From: Escherichia coli
GTDB taxonomy: Bacteria > Pseudomonadota > Gammaproteobacteria > Enterobacterales > Enterobacteriaceae
Reading direction: 5' to 3' (one strand)
DNA length: 64,000 nt
NCBI RefSeq assembly: GCF_003334405.1
Contig: NZ_QOWM01000006.1
Every line of letters starts with the position of its first letter. The stretch's first letter is position 1. This document shows positions 8,328 through 61,330 of this stretch, piece after piece. A model generated the notes under the pieces. That model was not told the DNA's origin. It made no database searches and saw only the letters and a list, made by a program, of their open reading frames with translations. Made by a program: the position numbers and the translations under genes.

Positions 8328-10052
8328 ATGGAGATGTTGTCTGGAGCCGAGATGGTCGTCCGATCGCTTATCGATCAGGGCGTTAAACAAGTATTCGGTT
8401 ATCCCGGAGGCGCAGTCCTTGATATTTATGATGCATTGCATACCGTGGGTGGTATTGATCATGTATTAGTTCGTCATGAGCAGGCGGCGGTGCATATGGC
8501 CGATGGCCTGGCGCGCGCGACCGGGGAAGTCGGCGTCGTGCTGGTAACGTCGGGTCCAGGGGCGACCAATGCGATTACTGGCATCGCCACCGCTTATATG
8601 GATTCCATTCCATTAGTTGTCCTTTCCGGGCAGGTAGCGACCTCGTTGATAGGTTACGATGCCTTTCAGGAGTGCGACATGGTGGGGATTTCGCGACCGG
8701 TGGTTAAACACAGTTTTCTGGTTAAGCAAACGGAAGACATTCCGCAGGTGCTGAAAAAGGCTTTCTGGCTGGCGGCAAGTGGTCGCCCAGGACCAGTAGT
8801 CGTTGATTTACCGAAAGATATTCTTAATCCGGCGAACAAATTACCCTATGTCTGGCCGGAGTCGGTCAGTATGCGTTCTTACAATCCCACTACTACCGGA
8901 CATAAAGGGCAAATTAAGCGTGCTCTGCAAACGCTGGTAGCGGCAAAAAAACCGGTTGTCTACGTAGGCGGTGGGGCAATCACGGCGGGCTGCCATCAGC
9001 AGTTGAAAGAAACGGTGGAGGCGTTGAATCTGCCCGTTGTTTGCTCATTGATGGGGCTGGGGGCGTTTCCGGCAACGCATCGTCAGGCACTGGGCATGCT
9101 GGGAATGCACGGTACCTACGAAGCCAATATGACGATGCATAACGCGGATGTGATTTTCGCCGTCGGGGTACGATTTGATGACCGAACGACGAACAATCTG
9201 GCAAAGTACTGCCCAAATGCCACTGTTCTGCATATCGATATTGATCCTACTTCCATTTCTAAAACCGTGACTGCGGATATCCCGATTGTGGGGGATGCTC
9301 GCCAGGTCCTCGAACAAATGCTTGAACTCTTGTCGCAAGAATCCGCCCATCAACCACTGGATGAGATCCGCGACTGGTGGCAGCAAATTGAACAGTGGCG
9401 CGCTCGTCAGTGCCTGAAATATGACACTCACAGTGAAAAGATTAAACCGCAGGCGGTGATCGAGACTCTTTGGCGGTTGACGAAGGGAGACGCTTACGTG
9501 ACGTCCGATGTCGGGCAGCACCAGATGTTTGCTGCACTTTATTATCCATTCGACAAACCGCGTCGCTGGATCAATTCCGGTGGCCTCGGCACGATGGGTT
9601 TTGGTTTACCTGCGGCACTGGGCGTCAAAATGGCGTTGCCAGAAGAAACCGTGGTTTGCGTCACTGGCGACGGCAGTATTCAGATGAACATCCAGGAACT
9701 GTCTACCGCGTTGCAATACGAGTTGCCCGTACTGGTGGTGAATCTCAATAACCGCTATCTGGGGATGGTGAAGCAGTGGCAGGACATGATCTATTCCGGC
9801 CGTCATTCACAATCTTATATGCAATCGCTACCCGATTTCGTCCGTCTGGCGGAAGCCTATGGGCATGTCGGGATCCAGATTTCTCATCCGCATGAGCTGG
9901 AAAGCAAACTTAGCGAGGCGCTGGAACAGGTGCGCAATAATCGCCTGGTGTTTGTTGATGTTACCGTCGATGGCAGCGAGCACGTCTACCCGATGCAGAT
10001 TCGCGGGGGCGGAATGGATGAAATGTGGTTAAGCAAAACGGAGAGAACCTGA
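8328..10052 (+). CDS. ilvI: Acetolactate synthase III (AHAS III) large subunit, 574 aa
   Basis: [31 protein letters not shown]... with thiamine-diphosphate motif (GDGS...N); RBS gtgaggcagg upstream of the ATG at 8328; track frame is 30 codons longer. Confidence 0.96.
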
Positions 10053-10054
10053 TT

Positions 10055-10546
10055 ATGCGCCGGATATTATCAGTCTTACTCGAAAATGAATCAGGCGCGT
10101 TATCCCGCGTGATTGGCCTTTTTTCCCAGCGTGGCTACAACATTGAAAGCCTGACCGTTGCGCCAACCGACGATCCGACATTATCGCGTATGACCATCCA
10201 GACCGTGGGCGATGAAAAAGTACTTGAGCAGATCGAAAAGCAATTACACAAACTGGTCGATGTCTTGCGCGTGAGTGAGTTGGGGCAGGGCGCGCATGTT
10301 GAGCGGGAAATCATGCTGGTGAAAATTCAGGCCAGCGGTTACGGGCGTGACGAAGTGAAACGTAATACGGAAATATTCCGTGGGCAAATTATCGATGTCA
10401 CACCCTCGCTTTATACCGTTCAATTAGCAGGCACCAGCGGTAAGCTTGATGCATTTTTAGCATCGATTCGCGATGTGGCGAAAATTGTGGAGGTTGCTCG
10501 CTCTGGTGTGGTCGGACTTTCGCGCGGCGATAAAATAATGCGTTGA
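10055..10546 (+). CDS. ilvH: Acetolactate synthase III small regulatory subunit, 163 aa
   Basis: [36 protein letters not shown]... (ACT-domain type), begins 2 nt after the ilvI stop. Confidence 0.96.
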
Positions 10547-54312: not shown

Positions 54313-56910
54313 GTGCTAGAAGAATACCGTAAGCACGTAGCTGAGCGTGCCGCTGAGGGGATTGCGCCCAAACCCCTGGATGCAAACCAAATGGCCGCAC
54401 TTGTAGAGCTGCTGAAAAACCCGCCCGCGGGCGAAGAAGAATTCCTGTTAGATCTGTTAACCAACCGTGTTCCCCCAGGCGTCGATGAAGCCGCCTATGT
54501 CAAAGCAGGCTTCCTGGCTGCTATCGCGAAAGGCGAAGCCAAATCCCCTCTGCTGACTCCGGAAAAAGCCATCGAACTGCTGGGCACCATGCAGGGTGGT
54601 TACAACATTCATCCGCTGATCGACGCGCTGGATGATGCCAAACTGGCACCTATTGCTGCCAAAGCACTTTCTCACACGCTGCTGATGTTCGATAACTTCT
54701 ATGACGTAGAAGAGAAAGCGAAAGCAGGCAACGAATATGCGAAGCAGGTTATGCAGTCCTGGGCGGATGCCGAATGGTTCCTGAATCGCCCGGCGCTGGC
54801 TGAAAAACTGACCGTTACTGTCTTCAAAGTCACTGGCGAAACTAACACCGATGACCTTTCTCCGGCACCGGATGCGTGGTCACGCCCGGATATCCCACTG
54901 CACGCGCTGGCGATGCTGAAAAACGCCCGTGAAGGTATTGAGCCAGACCAGCCTGGTGTTGTTGGTCCGATCAAGCAAATCGAAGCTCTGCAACAGAAAG
55001 GTTTCCCGCTGGCGTACGTCGGTGACGTTGTGGGTACGGGTTCTTCGCGTAAATCCGCCACTAACTCCGTTCTGTGGTTTATGGGCGATGATATTCCACA
55101 TGTGCCGAACAAACGCGGCGGTGGTTTGTGCCTCGGCGGTAAAATTGCACCCATCTTCTTTAACACGATGGAAGACGCGGGTGCACTGCCAATCGAAGTC
55201 GACGTCTCTAACCTGAACATGGGCGACGTGATTGACGTTTACCCGTACAAAGGTGAAGTGCGTAACCACGAAACCGGCGAACTGCTGGCGACCTTCGAAC
55301 TGAAAACCGACGTGCTGATTGATGAAGTGCGTGCTGGTGGCCGTATTCCGCTGATTATCGGGCGTGGCCTGACCACCAAAGCGCGTGAAGCACTTGGTCT
55401 GCCGCACAGTGATGTGTTCCGTCAGGCGAAAGATGTCGCTGAGAGCGATCGCGGCTTCTCGCTGGCGCAAAAAATGGTAGGCCGTGCCTGTGGCGTGAAA
55501 GGCATTCGTCCGGGCGCGTACTGTGAACCGAAAATGACTTCTGTAGGTTCCCAGGACACCACCGGCCCGATGACCCGTGATGAACTGAAAGACCTGGCGT
55601 GCCTGGGCTTCTCGGCTGACCTGGTGATGCAGTCTTTCTGCCACACCGCGGCGTATCCGAAGCCAGTTGACGTGAACACGCACCACACGCTGCCGGACTT
55701 CATTATGAACCGTGGCGGTGTGTCGCTGCGTCCGGGTGACGGCGTCATTCACTCCTGGCTGAACCGTATGCTGCTGCCGGATACCGTCGGTACCGGTGGT
55801 GACTCCCATACCCGTTTCCCGATCGGTATCTCTTTCCCGGCGGGTTCTGGTCTGGTGGCGTTTGCTGCCGCAACTGGCGTAATGCCGCTTGATATGCCGG
55901 AATCCGTTCTGGTGCGCTTCAAAGGCAAAATGCAGCCGGGCATCACCCTGCGCGATCTGGTACACGCTATTCCGCTGTATGCGATCAAACAAGGTCTGCT
56001 GACCGTTGAGAAGAAAGGCAAGAAAAACATCTTCTCTGGCCGCATCCTGGAAATTGAAGGTCTGCCGGATCTGAAAGTTGAGCAGGCCTTTGAGCTAACC
56101 GATGCGTCCGCCGAGCGTTCTGCCGCTGGTTGTACCATCAAGCTGAACAAAGAACCGATCATCGAATACCTGAACTCTAACATCGTCCTGCTGAAGTGGA
56201 TGATCGCGGAAGGTTACGGCGATCGTCGTACCCTGGAACGTCGTATTCAGGGCATGGAAAAATGGCTGGCGAATCCTGAGCTGCTGGAAGCCGATGCAGA
56301 TGCGGAATACGCGGCAGTGATCGACATCGATCTGGCGGATATTAAAGAGCCAATCCTGTGTGCTCCGAACGACCCGGATGACGCGCGTCCGCTGTCTGCG
56401 GTACAGGGTGAGAAGATCGACGAAGTGTTTATCGGTTCCTGCATGACCAACATCGGTCACTTCCGTGCTGCGGGTAAACTGCTGGATGCGCATAAAGGTC
56501 AGTTGCCGACCCGCCTGTGGGTGGCACCGCCAACCCGTATGGACGCCGCACAGTTGACCGAAGAAGGCTACTACAGCGTCTTCGGTAAGAGTGGTGCGCG
56601 TATCGAGATCCCTGGCTGTTCCCTGTGTATGGGTAACCAGGCGCGTGTGGCGGACGGTGCAACGGTGGTTTCCACCTCTACCCGTAACTTCCCGAACCGT
56701 CTGGGTACTGGCGCGAATGTCTTCCTGGCTTCTGCGGAACTGGCGGCTGTTGCGGCGCTGATTGGCAAACTGCCGACGCCGGAAGAGTACCAGACCTACG
56801 TGGCGCAGGTAGATAAAACAGCCGTTGATACTTACCGTTATCTGAACTTCAACCAGCTTTCTCAGTACACCGAGAAAGCCGATGGGGTGATTTTCCAGAC
56901 TGCGGTTTAA
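54313..56910 (+). CDS. acnB: Aconitate hydratase B / 2-methylisocitrate dehydratase, 865 aa
   Basis: GTG start at 54313 preceded by RBS aggagaacc; protein [26 protein letters not shown]...; the track frame extends 51 codons upstream with no RBS. Confidence 0.96.
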
Positions 56911-56944
56911 AAAGTCAGCGCACGCGCTGCGCATAAACGACACA

Positions 56945-56978
56945 ATGCCCGGTGAATGAGATTCCCGGGCATTTTTTA
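56945..56978 (+). terminator. Rho-independent terminator after acnB
   Basis: gcccggtgaatgagattcccgggc followed by attttttatt. Confidence 0.8.
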
Positions 56979-57084
56979 TTTCTAAACCATCGCCGTTCCG
57001 CTGTTTTTCTCCGGTAAGGCTGCGATAATTACATCAATGGCGCAATGCGATTTCGGTGCATTGCCGGGAGCAGAGGAACACACT

Positions 57085-57447
57085 ATGGATTACGAATTTC
57101 TGCGCGATATTACCGGAGTGGTAAAGGTGCGTATGTCCATGGGGCATGAAGTGGTCGGGCACTGGTTTAATGAAGAGGTGAAAGAAAACCTGGCCTTGCT
57201 TGATGAAGTGGAACAAGCAGCGCACGCACTGAAAGGTAGCGAACGGTCCTGGCAACGGGCAGGGCATGAATACACCCTGTGGATGGACGGTGAAGAGGTG
57301 ATGGTTCGCGCCAATCAACTGGAATTCGCTGGCGATGAAATGGAAGAGGGGATGAACTACTACGACGAAGAAAGCCTGTCGCTATGCGGCGTTGAGGATT
57401 TTCTGCAGGTCGTGGCGGCTTACCGCAATTTCGTGCAGCAGAAGTAA
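57085..57447 (+). CDS. yacL: UPF0231-family protein YacL, 120 aa
   Basis: Acidic 120-aa [39 protein letters not shown]...; the track frame is 16 codons longer. Confidence 0.9.
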
Positions 57448-57453
57448 ATAAAT

Positions 57454-57479
57454 CTGGCGGAGCCTGGGAGCTCCGCCAG
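57454..57479. terminator. Hairpin between convergent yacL and speD
   Basis: ctggcggagcctgggagctccgccag, a perfect 11-bp-arm inverted repeat. Confidence 0.6.
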
Positions 57480-57484
57480 AGCCG

Positions 57485-58279
57485 TTAAACAGCTGGCATA
57501 TTGCGCCCGTAATAAATCTCGCGCATTTCTTTCCACAGCGCAGCGGTAATTTCCTGGCGCTCGCTGTCGGTTAAGTCTTCCGGTTTGGTGTGGAACATGT
57601 AGTGCTTAAGGTCGAACTCTTTAAGCAACATCTTGGTATGGAAGATATTTTCCTGATAGACGTTCACATCCACCATGTCATACAGCGCCTTCATATCGTC
57701 AGACATAAAGTTCTGAATCGAATTAATCTCATGGTCGATAAAGTGCTTCATACCGTTAATGTCGCGGGTAAAACCGCGCACGCGATAATCAATGGTTACG
57801 ATATCGGACTCAAGCTGGTGGATCAGGTAATTCAGCGCCTTCAGCGGAGAAATCACGCCGCAGGTAGAGACTTCAATATCGGCGCGGAAGGTACATAAAC
57901 CGCCTTCAGGATGACTTTCCGGGTAGGTATGTACGCAAATATGACTTTTATCAAGATGGGCAACGACCGTTTCTGGCAGTGGGCCGGGGTGTTCTGTTTT
58001 GTCGATGAGTTTCGGGTCAACCGGTTCTTCACTCACCAGAATAGTGACGCTGGCACCCTGTGGTTCGTAATCCTGGCGGGCGATGTTAAGAATATTAGCC
58101 CCGATAATGGAACAGGTTTCTGACAGGATTTCGGTCAGACGGTTGGCATTATAGAGTTCATCGATATAAGCAATATAACCGTCGCGCTCTTCGGCAGTTT
58201 TGGCGTAGCAGATATCGTAAATACAAAAACTCAGACTTTTGGTCAGATTATTAAAGCCATGCAGTTTCAGTTTTTTCAA
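57485..58279 (-). CDS. speD: S-adenosylmethionine decarboxylase proenzyme, 264 aa
   Basis: 264-aa [38 protein letters not shown]... Confidence 0.96.
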
Positions 58280-58294
58280 TTTCTTATCTTCTCC

Positions 58295-59161
58295 TTAGGA
58301 CGGCTGTGAAGCCAGTGCGTCTTGCAGATACTGAGGTAAGGCAAAAGCTGCCGTATGGATTGCCGGATTGTAATAACGGCATTTCAGGCCAGAGGCGAGA
58401 AAACGCGCCTGAATAATTTCGGTTGAGAGATGGCGTAAGGCGTCGTTATCTGTCGCCCATGCAAAAGTCATGATACCGCCGTAATAGGTCGGGATCGCCG
58501 CCTGATAAAAGCCAACGTCGCTGAAGTAATGGCTGAGTTTGCGATGGCTGTCGATGGCTTCTTCCTGCTGTAAAAAGCAGACGCCGTTTTGTGCGACGAA
58601 GATACCGCCAGGATTCAGGCAACGTTTGCAGCCTTCATAAAATGCCGAAGTGAAAAGGCTTTCGCCGGGACCGATAGGATCGGTGCAGTCGGAGATAATG
58701 ACATCAAAGGTCTGGCTGGTTTGATTAACGAAATTGACGCCATCGTCGATCACCAGCTTAAAGCGCGGATCGTCGTAGCTACCGGCGTTATGGTTGGGTA
58801 GATACTGACGGCAGAACGATACGACACCCGCATCGATTTCCACCATCGTGATTGACTCAACGTTTTTATGTCGGGTTACTTCACGCAGCATGGCACCGTC
58901 GCCGCCGCCGATAATCAGCACATGTTTCGCGTGACCATGGGCCAGTAGCGGAACATGGGTCATCATCTCATGATAGATAAACTCGTCGCGCTCGGTGGTT
59001 TGTACTACGCCATCCAGCGCCATTACGCGACCAAATGCAGCGTTCTCAAAAATGATCAGATCCTGGTGATCGGTCTTTTCATGATACAGAACGTTATCTA
59101 CCGCAAAGTACTGCCCAAACTGGTCGTGTAGCGTTTCATGCCACTGTTTTTTTTCGGCCAT
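58295..59161 (-). CDS. speE: Spermidine synthase, 288 aa
   Basis: 288-aa ORF with aminopropyltransferase motifs (IIGGGDG); upstream of speD in the same operon. Confidence 0.96.
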
Positions 59162-59266
59162 GGGTTGATACCTCCTTTGTTAACACCCGTAAAAAAAGGG
59201 CGCAACATAATAGCTAACATTGACCGCGGATGCACGGTCAATATTTCTACAAAAAGGTATCAGGGA

Positions 59267-59614
59267 TTATTTGACGTAGGCAAGCAGGCTTAAGGAATCG
59301 CGGGCCAGGGCTTTGCATTTTTTAGCGACGGGAATGCCAATGCCGCTGAGATCGCGGTAGCTGTCTTCACCGAGGGCTTTCATGTCGAAGGTGTCGTAAT
59401 TACTGAGGTCCCACTGGTTTTGCTGAGCGAAAAAGACCAGTGCGCGACGAATTTGCCCGTTAGGTAAGTTCTGGTAACCACAATCGTTCTTCAGAAAGAC
59501 AAAAACTGCCGTTAAATCGGCCATATCTTCGGCTTCAGACTCGCTGAGCGCGTAACTGTTTGCGCAGACGGCCATCAGGCTGCCGAATAACACTGTTCTG
59601 AAAAACGTCTTCAT
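59267..59614 (-). CDS. yacC: Uncharacterized periplasmic protein YacC, 115 aa
   Basis: ORF MKTFFRTVLFGSLMAVCANSYALSESEAEDMADL... with signal peptide; the track frame is 57 codons longer. Confidence 0.88.
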   Translation of the reverse strand: MKTFFRTVLFGSLMAVCANSYALSESEAEDMADLTAVFVFLKNDCGYQNLPNGQIRRALVFFAQQNQWDLSNYDTFDMKALGEDSYRDLSGIGIPVAKKCKALARDSLSLLAYVK

Positions 59615-59707
59615 TGCTTCTACCAGGGGCTTAAAGAAGATAAACGTTAGCACACTGCGAGCGAGGCGACGACCATTATTGTCGATTAAATTGTGTCTGC
59701 GGCTTGA

Positions 59708-59726
59708 CCTTCCCGTAAGGGGAAGG
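59708..59726 (+). promoter_or_regulatory. CueR (MerR-family) operator dyad within the cueO promoter
   Basis: CCTTCCCgtaaGGGGAAGG dyad between a -35 TTGACC (59704-59709) and a -10-like TATGCT (59729-59734) with 19-bp spacing typical of MerR-type promoters. Confidence 0.8.
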
Positions 59727-59779
59727 ACTATGCTCAACGTTTGATTTTGTTTCGCCTGCTTAAGAATAAGGAAATAACT

Positions 59780-61330
59780 ATGCAACGTCGTGATTTCTTA
59801 AAATATTCCGTCGCGCTGGGTGTGGCTTCGGCTTTGCCGCTGTGGAGCCGCGCAGTATTTGCGGCAGAACGCCCAACGTTACCGATCCCTGATTTGCTCA
59901 CGACCGATGCCCGTAATCGCATTCAGTTAACTATTGGCGCAGGCCAGTCCACCTTTGGCGGGAAAACTGCAACTACCTGGGGCTATAACGGCAATCTGCT
60001 GGGGCCGGCGGTGAAATTACAGCGCGGCAAAGCGGTAACGGTTGATATCTACAACCAACTGACGGAAGAGACAACGTTGCACTGGCACGGGCTGGAAGTA
60101 CCGGGTGAAGTCGACGGCGGCCCGCAGGGAATTATTCCGCCAGGTGGCAAGCGCTCGGTGACGTTGAACGTTGATCAACCTGCCGCTACCTGCTGGTTCC
60201 ATCCGCATCAGCACGGCAAAACCGGGCGACAGGTGGCGATGGGGCTGGCTGGGCTGGTGGTGATTGAAGATGACGAGATCCTGAAATTAATGCTGCCAAA
60301 ACAGTGGGGTATCGATGATGTTCCGGTGATCGTTCAGGATAAGAAATTTAGCGCCGACGGGCAGATTGATTATCAACTGGATGTGATGACCGCCGCCGTG
60401 GGCTGGTTTGGCGATACGTTGCTGACCAACGGTGCAATCTACCCGCAACACGCTGCCCCGCGTGGTTGGCTGCGCCTGCGTTTGCTCAATGGCTGTAATG
60501 CCCGTTCGCTCAATTTCGCCACCAGCGACAATCGCCCGCTGTATGTGATTGCCAGCGACGGTGGTCTGCTACCTGAACCAGTGAAGGTGAGCGAACTGCC
60601 GGTGCTGATGGGCGAGCGTTTTGAAGTGCTGGTGGAGGTTAACGATAACAAACCCTTTGACCTGGTGACGCTGCCGGTCAGCCAGATGGGGATGGCGATT
60701 GCGCCGTTTGATAAGCCTCATCCGGTAATGCGGATTCAGCCGATTGCTATTAGTGCCTCCGGTGCTTTGCCAGACACATTAAGTAGCCTGCCTGCGTTAC
60801 CTTCGCTGGAAGGGCTGACGGTACGCAAGCTGCAACTCTCTATGGACCCGATGCTCGATATGATGGGGATGCAGATGCTAATGGAGAAATATGGCGATCA
60901 GGCGATGGCCGGGATGGATCACAGCCAGATGATGGGCCATATGGGGCACGGCAATATGAATCATATGAACCACGGCGGGAAGTTCGATTTCCACCATGCC
61001 AACAAAATCAACGGTCAGGCGTTTGATATGAACAAGCCGATGTTTGCGGCGGCGAAAGGGCAATACGAACGTTGGGTTATCTCTGGCGTGGGCGACATGA
61101 TGCTGCATCCGTTCCATATCCACGGCACGCAGTTCCGTATCTTGTCAGAAAATGGCAAACCGCCAGCGGCTCATCGCGCGGGCTGGAAAGATACCGTTAA
61201 GGTAGAAGGTAATGTCAGCGAAGTGCTGGTGAAGTTTAATCACGATGCACCGAAAGAACATGCTTATATGGCGCACTGCCATCTGCTGGAGCATGAAGAT
61301 ACGGGGATGATGTTAGGGTTTACGGTATAA
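59780..61330 (+). CDS. cueO: Multicopper oxidase CueO (Tat-exported), 516 aa
   Basis: [31 protein letters not shown]... (twin-arginine signal), copper-site motifs [13 protein letters not shown] and a Met-rich insert encoded at about 60842-60978; the track frame is 13 codons longer. Confidence 0.96.

Follow-up and report, generated by a model that had tools for sequence, protein, structure and literature searches.

The acnB-cueO region of Escherichia coli: a probable RNA polymerase accessory protein, YacL, and a probably soluble pilotin-fold protein, YacC, encoded ahead of speED

MerR-type activators act on the sole promoter whose spacer contains their dyad, and in mer the divergent promoter is repressed by MerR because it overlaps the operator. 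Among the CueR promoters (copA, cueO), that of cueO has the classic layout, with the dyad inside a 19-bp spacer between the -35 and -10 elements, and cueO resembles merR/merT in having a divergent gene on its other side. This gene, yacC, encodes a relative of the PulS/OutS/GspS (EtpO) pilotins (PF09691; PDB 4A56, 3UTK, 4K0U, 3SOL, 6HCG), with which YacC shares a small four-helix fold, a Sec signal peptide, sequence similarity (Pfam PF09691, E 3e-9, residues 24-105) and a cysteine pair that aligns with that of OutS. However, the pilotins are outer-membrane lipoproteins, whereas YacC has no conserved lipobox cysteine and is probably soluble. It also differs from the pilotins of type II secretion systems (T2SS) in being encoded between cueO and speE and in scoring 38.5 bits against the GspS equivalog TIGR01004, under the cut-off of 75, and compared with a typical accessory secretion component it is far more conserved across genera. 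YacC is the type member of the YacC family pilotin-like proteins (NF037975), the “YacC group” of Dunstan et al. (2013), and RefSeq uses the family name. The second small gene considered here, yacL, encodes the type member of the UPF0231/YacL family, in which the motifs SMGHE, W27, G60 and C101-G102-x-x-D105 recur in 72 diverse members.

Across the window, the 64,000-nt stretch of E. coli DNA to which all positions refer, the chromosomal order is acnB-yacL-speD-speE-yacC-cueO-gcd, with the following genes bounding or making up the region of interest:

acnB, ending at 56910
57085-57447, plus strand: yacL, 120 aa, acidic UPF0231 protein (open reading frame; “protein YacL” in RefSeq)
57485-58279, minus strand: speD, S-adenosylmethionine decarboxylase proenzyme (open reading frame and RefSeq)
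58295-59161, minus strand: speE, spermidine synthase (open reading frame and RefSeq)
59267-59614, minus strand: yacC, 115 aa, signal peptide 1-22, then the mature domain of PulS/OutS fold, which contains Cys45 and Cys100
59780-61330, plus strand: cueO, multicopper oxidase with a Tat signal, divergent neighbour of yacC (open reading frame and RefSeq)

A search of 5,426 complete E. coli genomes matched the 3.3-kb stretch in every one, and RefSeq annotates the same genes with identical boundaries. It is very probably an ordinary annotated piece of E. coli sequence, with an RNA polymerase-associated YacL, a soluble, pilotin-fold YacC heading a speED unit, and CueR acting for cueO only. Much of the original prediction stands: the yacL and yacC reading frames lie where it placed them and are real far beyond chance (NCBIfam scores of 261.6 bits for YacL and 196.8 bits for YacC; dN/dS of 0.01-0.04 for yacC), YacL is strongly acidic (pI 4.45; 25 D/E against 10 K/R), a rho-independent terminator separates it from acnB, YacC carries an N-terminal signal peptide, and exactly 165 bp (59615-59779) lie between the divergent start codons of yacC and cueO. 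By contrast, it placed yacC on the strand of speE and downstream of that gene, which was right as to the strand and wrong as to the order, since yacC sits upstream: along the minus strand yacC (59614 to 59267) is 5'-proximal and is followed by speE (59161 to 58295) and speD (58279 to 57485). Its label “uncharacterized” fits insofar as the biological roles of both proteins are still unsettled, but the binding of YacL to RNA polymerase and NusG and the membership of YacC in PulS/OutS are published. An Rfam scan of 56800-59900 returned merely two sub-threshold snoRNA chance matches.

A consensus promoter scanner found zero sites in the region, because the promoters predicted for yacL and yacC are of the extended -10 type and their -35 elements are poor. 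Read from the sequence, the spacer between yacC and cueO contains:

59644-59680, minus strand: predicted yacC (operon) promoter, with the extended -10 TGCTAACGT (59652-59644), TCGTCG at -35 (59672-59667) and the A/T block AATAAT (59680-59675); predicted start near 59637
59704-59734, plus strand: cueO promoter, with the -35 TTGACC (59704-59709), the -10 TATGCT (59729-59734) and a 19-bp spacer
59708-59726, centre 59717: CueR dyad CCTTCCCGTAAGGGGAAGG, inside the cueO promoter spacer

The blocks of the predicted yacC promoter are at least 90% conserved among 78 distinct upstream regions, and the promoter also occurs in the distant genome L088, there as TGCTACCGT, and in L064, a species in which cueO is not adjacent. 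S1 mapping by Xie, Tabor and Tabor in 1989 reportedly placed a start about 475 bp upstream of speE, with which the start predicted here presumably agrees. The yacC and cueO promoters would thus stand back to back, with about 21-31 bp between their -35 elements and start sites about 104 bp apart. In 79 of the 80 species the CueR dyad occurs together with the GGTCAAG next to it, allowing at most three mismatches across the 12 arm positions of the dyad, and a CueR site of the “yacC-yacK divergon” was noted before (Permina et al., 2006; PMC1526738). The dyad belongs to the spacer of the cueO promoter and stays clear of the predicted yacC promoter, the core of which (59644-59672) ends ~35 bp from it, so that the overlap between operator and divergent promoter that marks mer is not seen here.

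The short divergent region had raised the question whether yacC shares copper regulation with cueO. Dyad-bound CueR or heavy copper-induced transcription of cueO would then alter yacC promoter activity across the common 165 bp, through crowding of RNA polymerases, competition of alpha-CTD for the A/T block, or supercoiling. Such sharing is unlikely. It would fit with the adjacency of the divergent pair, which holds for 79 of the 80 Enterobacteriaceae species and extends to two more distant genomes, some of them lacking speED or acnB, with -35 elements so close that the polymerases would sit back to back, and with the periplasmic location of both YacC and CueO. However, MerR-type activation is limited to the dyad-bearing promoter, and the centre of the dyad lies at about -80 relative to the predicted yacC start in E. 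coli and at about -70 in most genera. The distance from the dyad to the yacC ATG moreover varies, falling into classes of 93/94, 100-105, 114, 138 and 149 bp; helical phasing of the CueR box relative to yacC was rejected, as these classes do not follow steps of 10.5 bp consistently. Exactly between the cueO -35 element and the yacC A/T block lie insertions that measure 10 to 55 bp and, in one species, 5.3 kb, so that the two promoters look like separable modules, and L064 retains the yacC promoter with neither an adjacent cueO nor a CueR box. Mature YacC contains zero His and only two Met and therefore has no obvious copper site. In proteomics, YacC was lowered by pipemidic acid and not by the metal chelator clioquinol, a response that gives no link to copper. 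Copper or CueR control of yacC is not reported in the literature of the searchable collection that names yacC together with cueO or copper, and a Reg-Seq data set (PMC12133099) that includes the yacC promoter and conditions of 0.5 and 2 mM CuSO4 gives no yacC result in its text. Positive support for the proposed sharing is thus absent, with the dyad inside the cueO promoter spacer, and the DNA gives no indication of copper control of yacC; co-regulation, which might still exist, is unsupported, and the CueR operator would belong to the cueO promoter only.

The protein itself points to the pilotin fold. YacC scores 196.8 bits against NF037975 (cut-off 80) over residues 1-115 of 115, and its sequence matches OutS chains (E 3e-5) and PulS (E 0.007). 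With a structural model of moderate quality (pLDDT 70, shallow alignment), the top four Foldseek matches were 3UTK, 4A56, 6HCG_P and 3SOL, at a probability of 1.00 and a TM(target) of 0.75-0.78; all matches at probability 1.00 were OutS, PulS or GspS, and the next one had an E of 1.8. The orthologues are intact in all 80 species, with Cys45 and Cys100 invariant (80/80) and aligned with both cysteines of OutS, a mature domain that is 96.7% identical across the 80 species, and an invariant SYA|LSE signal peptidase I site at the end of the signal peptide. A cysteine at position 17 is present in 44 of the 80 species, where the residue before it is Val or Met, and absent in 36, of which 31 have no cysteine in the signal peptide and five have one at position 12 or 18. 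Since a canonical lipobox, LLGC, occurs in L091, a distant homologue, the non-lipidation of YacC may be a derived state. YacC, which has been detected by mass spectrometry, would be exported by Sec, cleaved by signal peptidase I and left without lipid, and would fold as a four-helix, disulfide-bridged protein of the PulS/OutS type. We infer that it is a soluble periplasmic binder of a short helical peptide in some partner, as the pilotins bind the secretin S-domain, and not an outer-membrane pilot.

That YacC works as a secretin pilotin or T2SS accessory after all, with a secretin of the Klebsiella type, for example PulD, or the silent GspD-alpha of K-12 as its target, seems decidedly doubtful. 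It belongs to PulS/OutS by sequence and fold, and L091 has the lipobox; in the accessible part of a study of Klebsiella pneumoniae, the outer membrane of a yacC::Tn5 mutant was without PulA, which hints at a link to the T2SS, but complementation of the mutant was not found in that part of the text (Tomas et al., 2015; PMC4505419). However, deletion of yacC in EPEC left SslE secretion as well as the assembly and localisation of GspD unchanged, and in the same work co-expression of YacC failed to pilot GspD (Dunstan et al., 2013). The lipobox cysteine is not conserved, the TIGR01004 score stays below the equivalog cut-off, and yacC was never within a T2SS cluster: none surrounds it at the 80 loci, in L088 or in L091, where its neighbours are cueO and speE or yacL.

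Returning to the reading of YacC as a soluble peptide binder, its gene is most likely the first cistron of a unit that includes speED. Co-transcription is favoured by the common strand, the 105-bp gap between yacC and speE and the conserved predicted promoter upstream of yacC, whereas a hairpin and a promoter-like element between yacC and speE, and the absence or separation of speED in some species, speak against a simple operon. The spacer between the two genes contains:

59217-59244, minus strand: hairpin P2, which follows yacC and is a candidate for a partial terminator
59207-59235, minus strand: candidate speE-proximal promoter, a conserved GTGCAT-N17-TATTAT overlapping P2, of putative function
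59179-59206, minus strand: hairpin P3 of the speE leader, GUUGCGCCC...GGGUGUUAAC; 3 nt separate its end from the speE Shine-Dalgarno sequence (59171-59175)

P2, which may be the terminator t' reported by Xie et al. in 1989, was recovered by RNAalifold, with double-sided changes in four of six pairs, and has the terminator-like form AACCGC..GCGGUUUUGUGUU in the E. cloacae complex. CCGTGCA and GTTAGCTATGATGTTGCGCC stay conserved even where the P2 pairing is lost; the speE-proximal motif reads TATAAT in the distant L091 and is replaced by a terminator-like hairpin in the E. cloacae complex. Transcription of yacC-speE-speD would be driven by the conserved extended -10 promoter with its start near 59637 and yacC in the promoter-proximal position, P2 would probably stop part of the transcripts, and the second promoter-like element may add transcripts of speED only. 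P3 is present in most of 51 distinct sequences, with compensatory variants, among them CGCUC/GAGUG, CGCCU/AGGUG and CGCUCA/UGAGCG, and the whole E. coli spacer folds at -41.5 kcal/mol (z -6.4). In the minimum-energy fold, the speE Shine-Dalgarno sequence is paired with the first 25 nt past the yacC stop in 45 of 57 sequence variants. Long-range masking as a conserved feature was rejected, since the duplex energies do not improve on composition-matched shuffles (mean z -0.23) and are like those of control windows inside yacC (-13.0 against -11.8 and -13.4 kcal/mol); the outliers were Escherichia (z about -2.6) and one Kosakonia (z -2.4) only.

In evolution, yacC remains beside cueO. The divergent pair is adjacent even without speED or acnB nearby, and yacC is intact next to cueO in genomes from which speED is missing (about ten loci of the C. 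freundii complex, L073 and the distant L088); in K. pneumoniae an insertion of two genes parts yacC from speE. This insertion and the loss in the C. freundii complex mean that co-transcription of yacC with speED is not universal, and the overall pattern suggests that yacC follows cueO rather than speED, with a 5.3-kb separation of yacC and cueO in one species. A role of YacC in polyamine metabolism as head of the speED operon, for instance in the sensing or handling of periplasmic polyamines, is very unlikely. The predicted promoter upstream of yacC, and its position on the same strand at a short distance from speE in ~66 of 80 species and in L091, would be in line with it, but species that lost speED still have an intact yacC, which strong purifying selection maintains (dN/dS 0.011 in L017), the compartments are unlike (periplasm for YacC, cytoplasm for polyamine metabolism), and the two genes inserted in K. 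pneumoniae part it from speE. There is likewise only a very small chance that YacC is a dedicated periplasmic partner of CueO, for instance by binding a helical segment of Tat-exported apo-CueO while copper is loaded, or by shielding the methionine-rich helix of CueO; expression of both would then be coupled through the conserved back-to-back promoters, and the persistence of a strongly constrained yacC beside cueO, where speED and acnB have left, would be explained.

On the other side of speED, yacL is delimited by three elements:

56944-56981, plus strand: acnB intrinsic terminator, stem AATGCCCGG/CCGGGCATT and a T-run, RNA fold -25.2 kcal/mol (z -2.8)
57021-57029, plus strand: predicted yacL promoter, with the extended -10 TGcGATAAT; predicted start near 57036
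57453-57480, no single strand assigned: hairpin common to the convergent yacL and speD, with a 12-bp stem, found by the scanner

The acnB terminator, which consists of a 9-bp stem (56944-56973) and a U-run behind it, was missed by the consensus scanner because its loop is 11 nt long; other genera likewise have a GC-rich hairpin and a T-run ahead of the yacL promoter. Among 66 distinct acnB-yacL spacers, CTGCGATAAT and the T-rich tract before it are at least 90% conserved, and the yacL Shine-Dalgarno sequence is conserved as well, whereas an upstream in-frame ATG at 57037 shows no conservation. The hairpin between yacL and speD folds at -22.9 kcal/mol on the plus strand (z -4.5) and -23.9 kcal/mol on the minus strand (z -5.3), and only on the minus (speD) strand is it followed by a T-run. 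Several genomes without speED keep a similar hairpin. Judged from its nucleotide context, yacL would stand alone, served by a conserved extended -10 promoter of its own directly beyond the acnB terminator, and its variable neighbourhood outside the Enterobacteriaceae fits a monocistronic gene. Gene neighbourhood was rejected as a guide to YacL function, since each of the distant lineages sampled has a different context (oxaloacetate decarboxylase genes, P-II and others).

YacL passes NCBIfam NF003574 over its full length (261.6 bits against a cut-off of 197) and matches Pfam PF06062 over residues 1-117 (E 6e-40). Its AF2 model (pLDDT 87.8) is alpha/beta, with a disordered acidic stretch at residues 81-90; function was not derived from the fold, as the structural matches of this acidic protein are too weak as a basis. 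YacL was reported to cross-link to beta, beta' and NusG, with reciprocal pull-downs and a co-elution of r = 0.988 (Lenz et al., 2021; PMC8196013), and a SEC-MS study of 2026 again found it enriched with RpoA. On RNA polymerase its abundance is about that of NusG. This small alpha/beta member of the gamma-proteobacterial UPF0231 family, with its published binding to RNA polymerase (beta, beta') and NusG near the DNA exit, probably serves elongating RNA polymerase as an accessory factor, and its acidic disordered loop would touch a basic surface of the polymerase. That YacL works through the secondary channel, as Gre factors or DksA do, is exceedingly improbable: a 2012 review (PMC3616080) named it, together with GreA, GreB, DksA, TraR and Rnk, as a candidate “alternative module” of the active centre, but in the AF2 model, which is confident, the fold is alpha/beta and has no coiled-coil finger.

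The literature or RefSeq already contains both genes, their family assignments, the binding of YacL to RNA polymerase and the finding that YacC did not act as the secretin pilotin in EPEC. What is added is the corrected gene order, the view of YacC as a probably soluble, exceptionally constrained protein of the pilotin fold, and the predicted yacL and yacC promoters. For the field, little changes; the predicted promoters make the question of copper control of yacC easy to test.

The segment 56800-60100 of the window matches many E. coli chromosomes at 100% identity and was found in all of the complete genomes searched (5,426/5,426). The RefSeq annotation gives the order acnB, yacL, speD, speE, yacC, cueO and gcd:

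ends 56910, plus strand, acnB
57085-57447, plus strand, yacL (120 aa)
57485-58279, minus strand, speD
58295-59161, minus strand, speE
59267-59614, minus strand, yacC (115 aa)
starts 59780, plus strand, cueO

The original prediction put forward yacL and yacC as two small uncharacterized genes; they are real but ordinary, are already catalogued, and were described with one orientation error. yacC had been placed downstream of speE, but the minus-strand transcription order is yacC, speE, speD, and therefore yacC lies upstream of speE. The terminator proposed between acnB and yacL was borne out, with a 9-bp stem (56944-56973), a U-run and a fold of -25.2 kcal/mol (z -2.8); a simple terminator scanner did not call it because the loop is long. 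Another strong hairpin (57453-57480) separates the convergent yacL and speD, with a T-run following it on the speD strand only. The neighbouring yacH (52105-53958, minus strand) is a DUF3300 gene, the protein of which carries a His/Asp-rich run, DDDDHDHHHHDNDDYHHHDGGH, and four tandem repeats of a ~30-residue motif (SASPEQRQ...RE.MQ...); YacH is a possible metal-binding periplasmic protein, encoded two genes from the copper oxidase gene.

By sequence YacL belongs to UPF0231, of which it is the type member (Pfam E 6e-40; NCBIfam 261.6 bits, cut-off 197), and only 278 relatives turned up when 1.84 billion representative proteins were searched exhaustively. It is acidic, as had been claimed (pI 4.45; 25 D/E versus 10 K/R), and M1, F5, the SMGHE motif, W27, G60, C101-G102, D105 and F116 are conserved across 72 diverse family members that were aligned. 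AlphaFold gives a confident model (pLDDT 87.8), with an alpha/beta fold in which residues 81-90 form a disordered acidic loop. Upstream of yacL, 66 distinct spacers share, with conservation of 90% or more, a T-rich tract and the extended -10 element CTGCGATAAT (57021-57029). An in-frame ATG at 57037, 48 nt 5' of the annotated start, would extend the ORF to 136 aa in E. coli, but this ATG is not conserved and the segment 57037-57084 is deleted in many genera, which leaves 57085, the annotated start, as the conserved one. Each distant lineage has different genes beside yacL. YacL cross-links to the beta and beta' subunits of RNA polymerase and to NusG (Lenz et al., 2021, PMC8196013), and was found once more with RpoA by SEC-MS in a 2026 study. 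We conclude that yacL is monocistronic and that its product is a putative accessory factor of RNA polymerase during elongation.

YacC matches the NCBIfam "YacC family pilotin-like protein" with 196.8 bits (cut-off 80) and, more weakly, the PulS/OutS Pfam family (E 3e-9), while its score against the GspS pilotin equivalog is 38.5 bits, below the cut-off of 75. It aligns cysteine to cysteine with the OutS and PulS PDB chains, and its model (pLDDT 70) matches only OutS, PulS and GspS in structure (TM 0.75-0.78). When 100,044 species genomes were scanned, 167 yacC loci were recovered, of which the best 80 are all from Enterobacteriaceae. In every one of these 80 the ORF is intact, and Cys45, Cys100 and the cleavage site SYA|LSE are unchanged. 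Mean identity of the mature domain is 96.7%, compared with 95.8% for AcnB and 82.0% for CueO, and dN/dS is 0.01-0.04, at saturated dS. Cys17 of the signal peptide occurs in only 44 of the 80, where it follows Val or Met and so does not make up a lipobox, while SYA|LSE is invariant; YacC is therefore most likely soluble in the periplasm, in contrast to true pilotins. A canonical lipobox (LLGC) occurs in a distant homologue from an AT-rich genome (L091:6001-6348), which suggests that the ancestor may have been a lipoprotein, the anchor having been lost in Enterobacteriaceae. Published tests of function point in conflicting directions: EPEC lacking yacC shows normal SslE secretion and GspD assembly, and YacC is unable to pilot GspD (Dunstan et al., 2013), whereas PulA was missing from the outer membranes of a K. 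pneumoniae yacC::Tn5 mutant (Tomas et al., 2015, PMC4505419).

The yacC-speE spacer (59162-59266, minus strand) of E. coli encodes an RNA with an unusually stable fold (-41.5 kcal/mol, z -6.4) and contains three conserved elements:

59217-59244, minus strand, hairpin P2, with compensatory changes
59179-59206, minus strand, hairpin P3, with compensatory changes
59235-59207, minus strand, promoter-like element GTGCAT-N17-TATTAT

The promoter-like element is kept even in L091, there with TATAAT; in the E. cloacae complex a terminator-like hairpin takes its place. Rfam gave no match in the searched region 56800-59900, which includes the spacer. Masking of the speE ribosome-binding site by the bases that directly follow the yacC stop codon was rejected, as pairing did not exceed that of shuffled and control sequences (mean z -0.23).

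The start codons of yacC and cueO are exactly 165 bp apart, as originally noted, and the cueO promoter read from this gap has the standard layout of MerR-type promoters, with the CueR dyad inside the 19-bp spacer:

59704-59709, plus strand, cueO -35 element TTGACC
59708-59726, within the 19-bp cueO spacer, CueR dyad CCTTCCCGTAAGGGGAAGG
59729-59734, plus strand, cueO -10 element TATGCT
59652-59644, minus strand, predicted extended -10 promoter of yacC

The dyad and the cueO -35 element are conserved in 79/80 species. Alignment of 78 distinct yacC upstream regions brought out a further conserved module (in order, AATAATAAAG, TCGTCG and AGTrTGCTAACGTT), which is the predicted yacC promoter, with a predicted start near 59637. 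The centre of the dyad lies ~80 bp upstream of this start in E. coli; in most genera the distance is ~70 bp. The two promoters look like separable, back-to-back modules, because insertions of 10, 20, 44 and 55 bp and of 5.3 kb all fall between the cueO -35 element and the A/T-rich upstream block of the yacC module, and because this module is retained in Intestinirhabdus alba (L064) without a CueR box and in the distant locus L088. Xie, Tabor and Tabor reportedly mapped the main speED promoter in 1989 to ~475 bp upstream of speE, and are said to have found an ORF1 of 115 codons and, before speE, a partial terminator; the predicted yacC start presumably agrees with that promoter position. Shared copper regulation of yacC, which the divergent arrangement had raised, is conceivable but unsupported; the two papers in the searched library that name both yacC and cueO report no regulation, and the text of a Reg-Seq study (2025) that had the yacC promoter in its set, and copper among its conditions, is silent on this promoter.

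The divergent arrangement itself held across genomes, cueO being the divergent neighbour of yacC in 79/80 species; the exception is I. alba, with a 5.3-kb insertion (L064:4712-10000) holding the gene for a methyl-accepting chemotaxis protein and an ABC transporter of three genes, the latter ending just upstream of yacC. speE-speD follows yacC in ~66 of 80 species. Both genes are absent in about ten loci from Citrobacter freundii complex species and in L073, from another member of the Enterobacteriaceae (L004, L006, L010, L017-L022, L025 and L073; yacC at ~10001-10348), where yacC abuts yacL over a short spacer that retains a terminator-like hairpin in L017, L022 and L073; these species are presumably unable to form spermidine by the speE/speD route. 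In K. pneumoniae ATCC 13883 an insertion of 2.6 kb separates yacC from speE (L079:10346-13012); one ORF in it (136 aa) is lipoprotein-like, and a second (619 aa) combines long coiled-coil repeats (KALNADKQ...) with an FKBP-like C-terminus. In L088, where YacC is 58% identical, yacL, convergent yacC and divergent cueO occur without speED, and the order in L091 is cueO, yacC, speE, speD. The speE ORF of L091 is apparently truncated or frameshifted after ~residue 205. Given this synteny across the 80 species and the two distant loci, yacC tracks cueO more faithfully than it does speED, and this synteny is the sole indirect argument that yacC and cueO might be linked in function or regulation.
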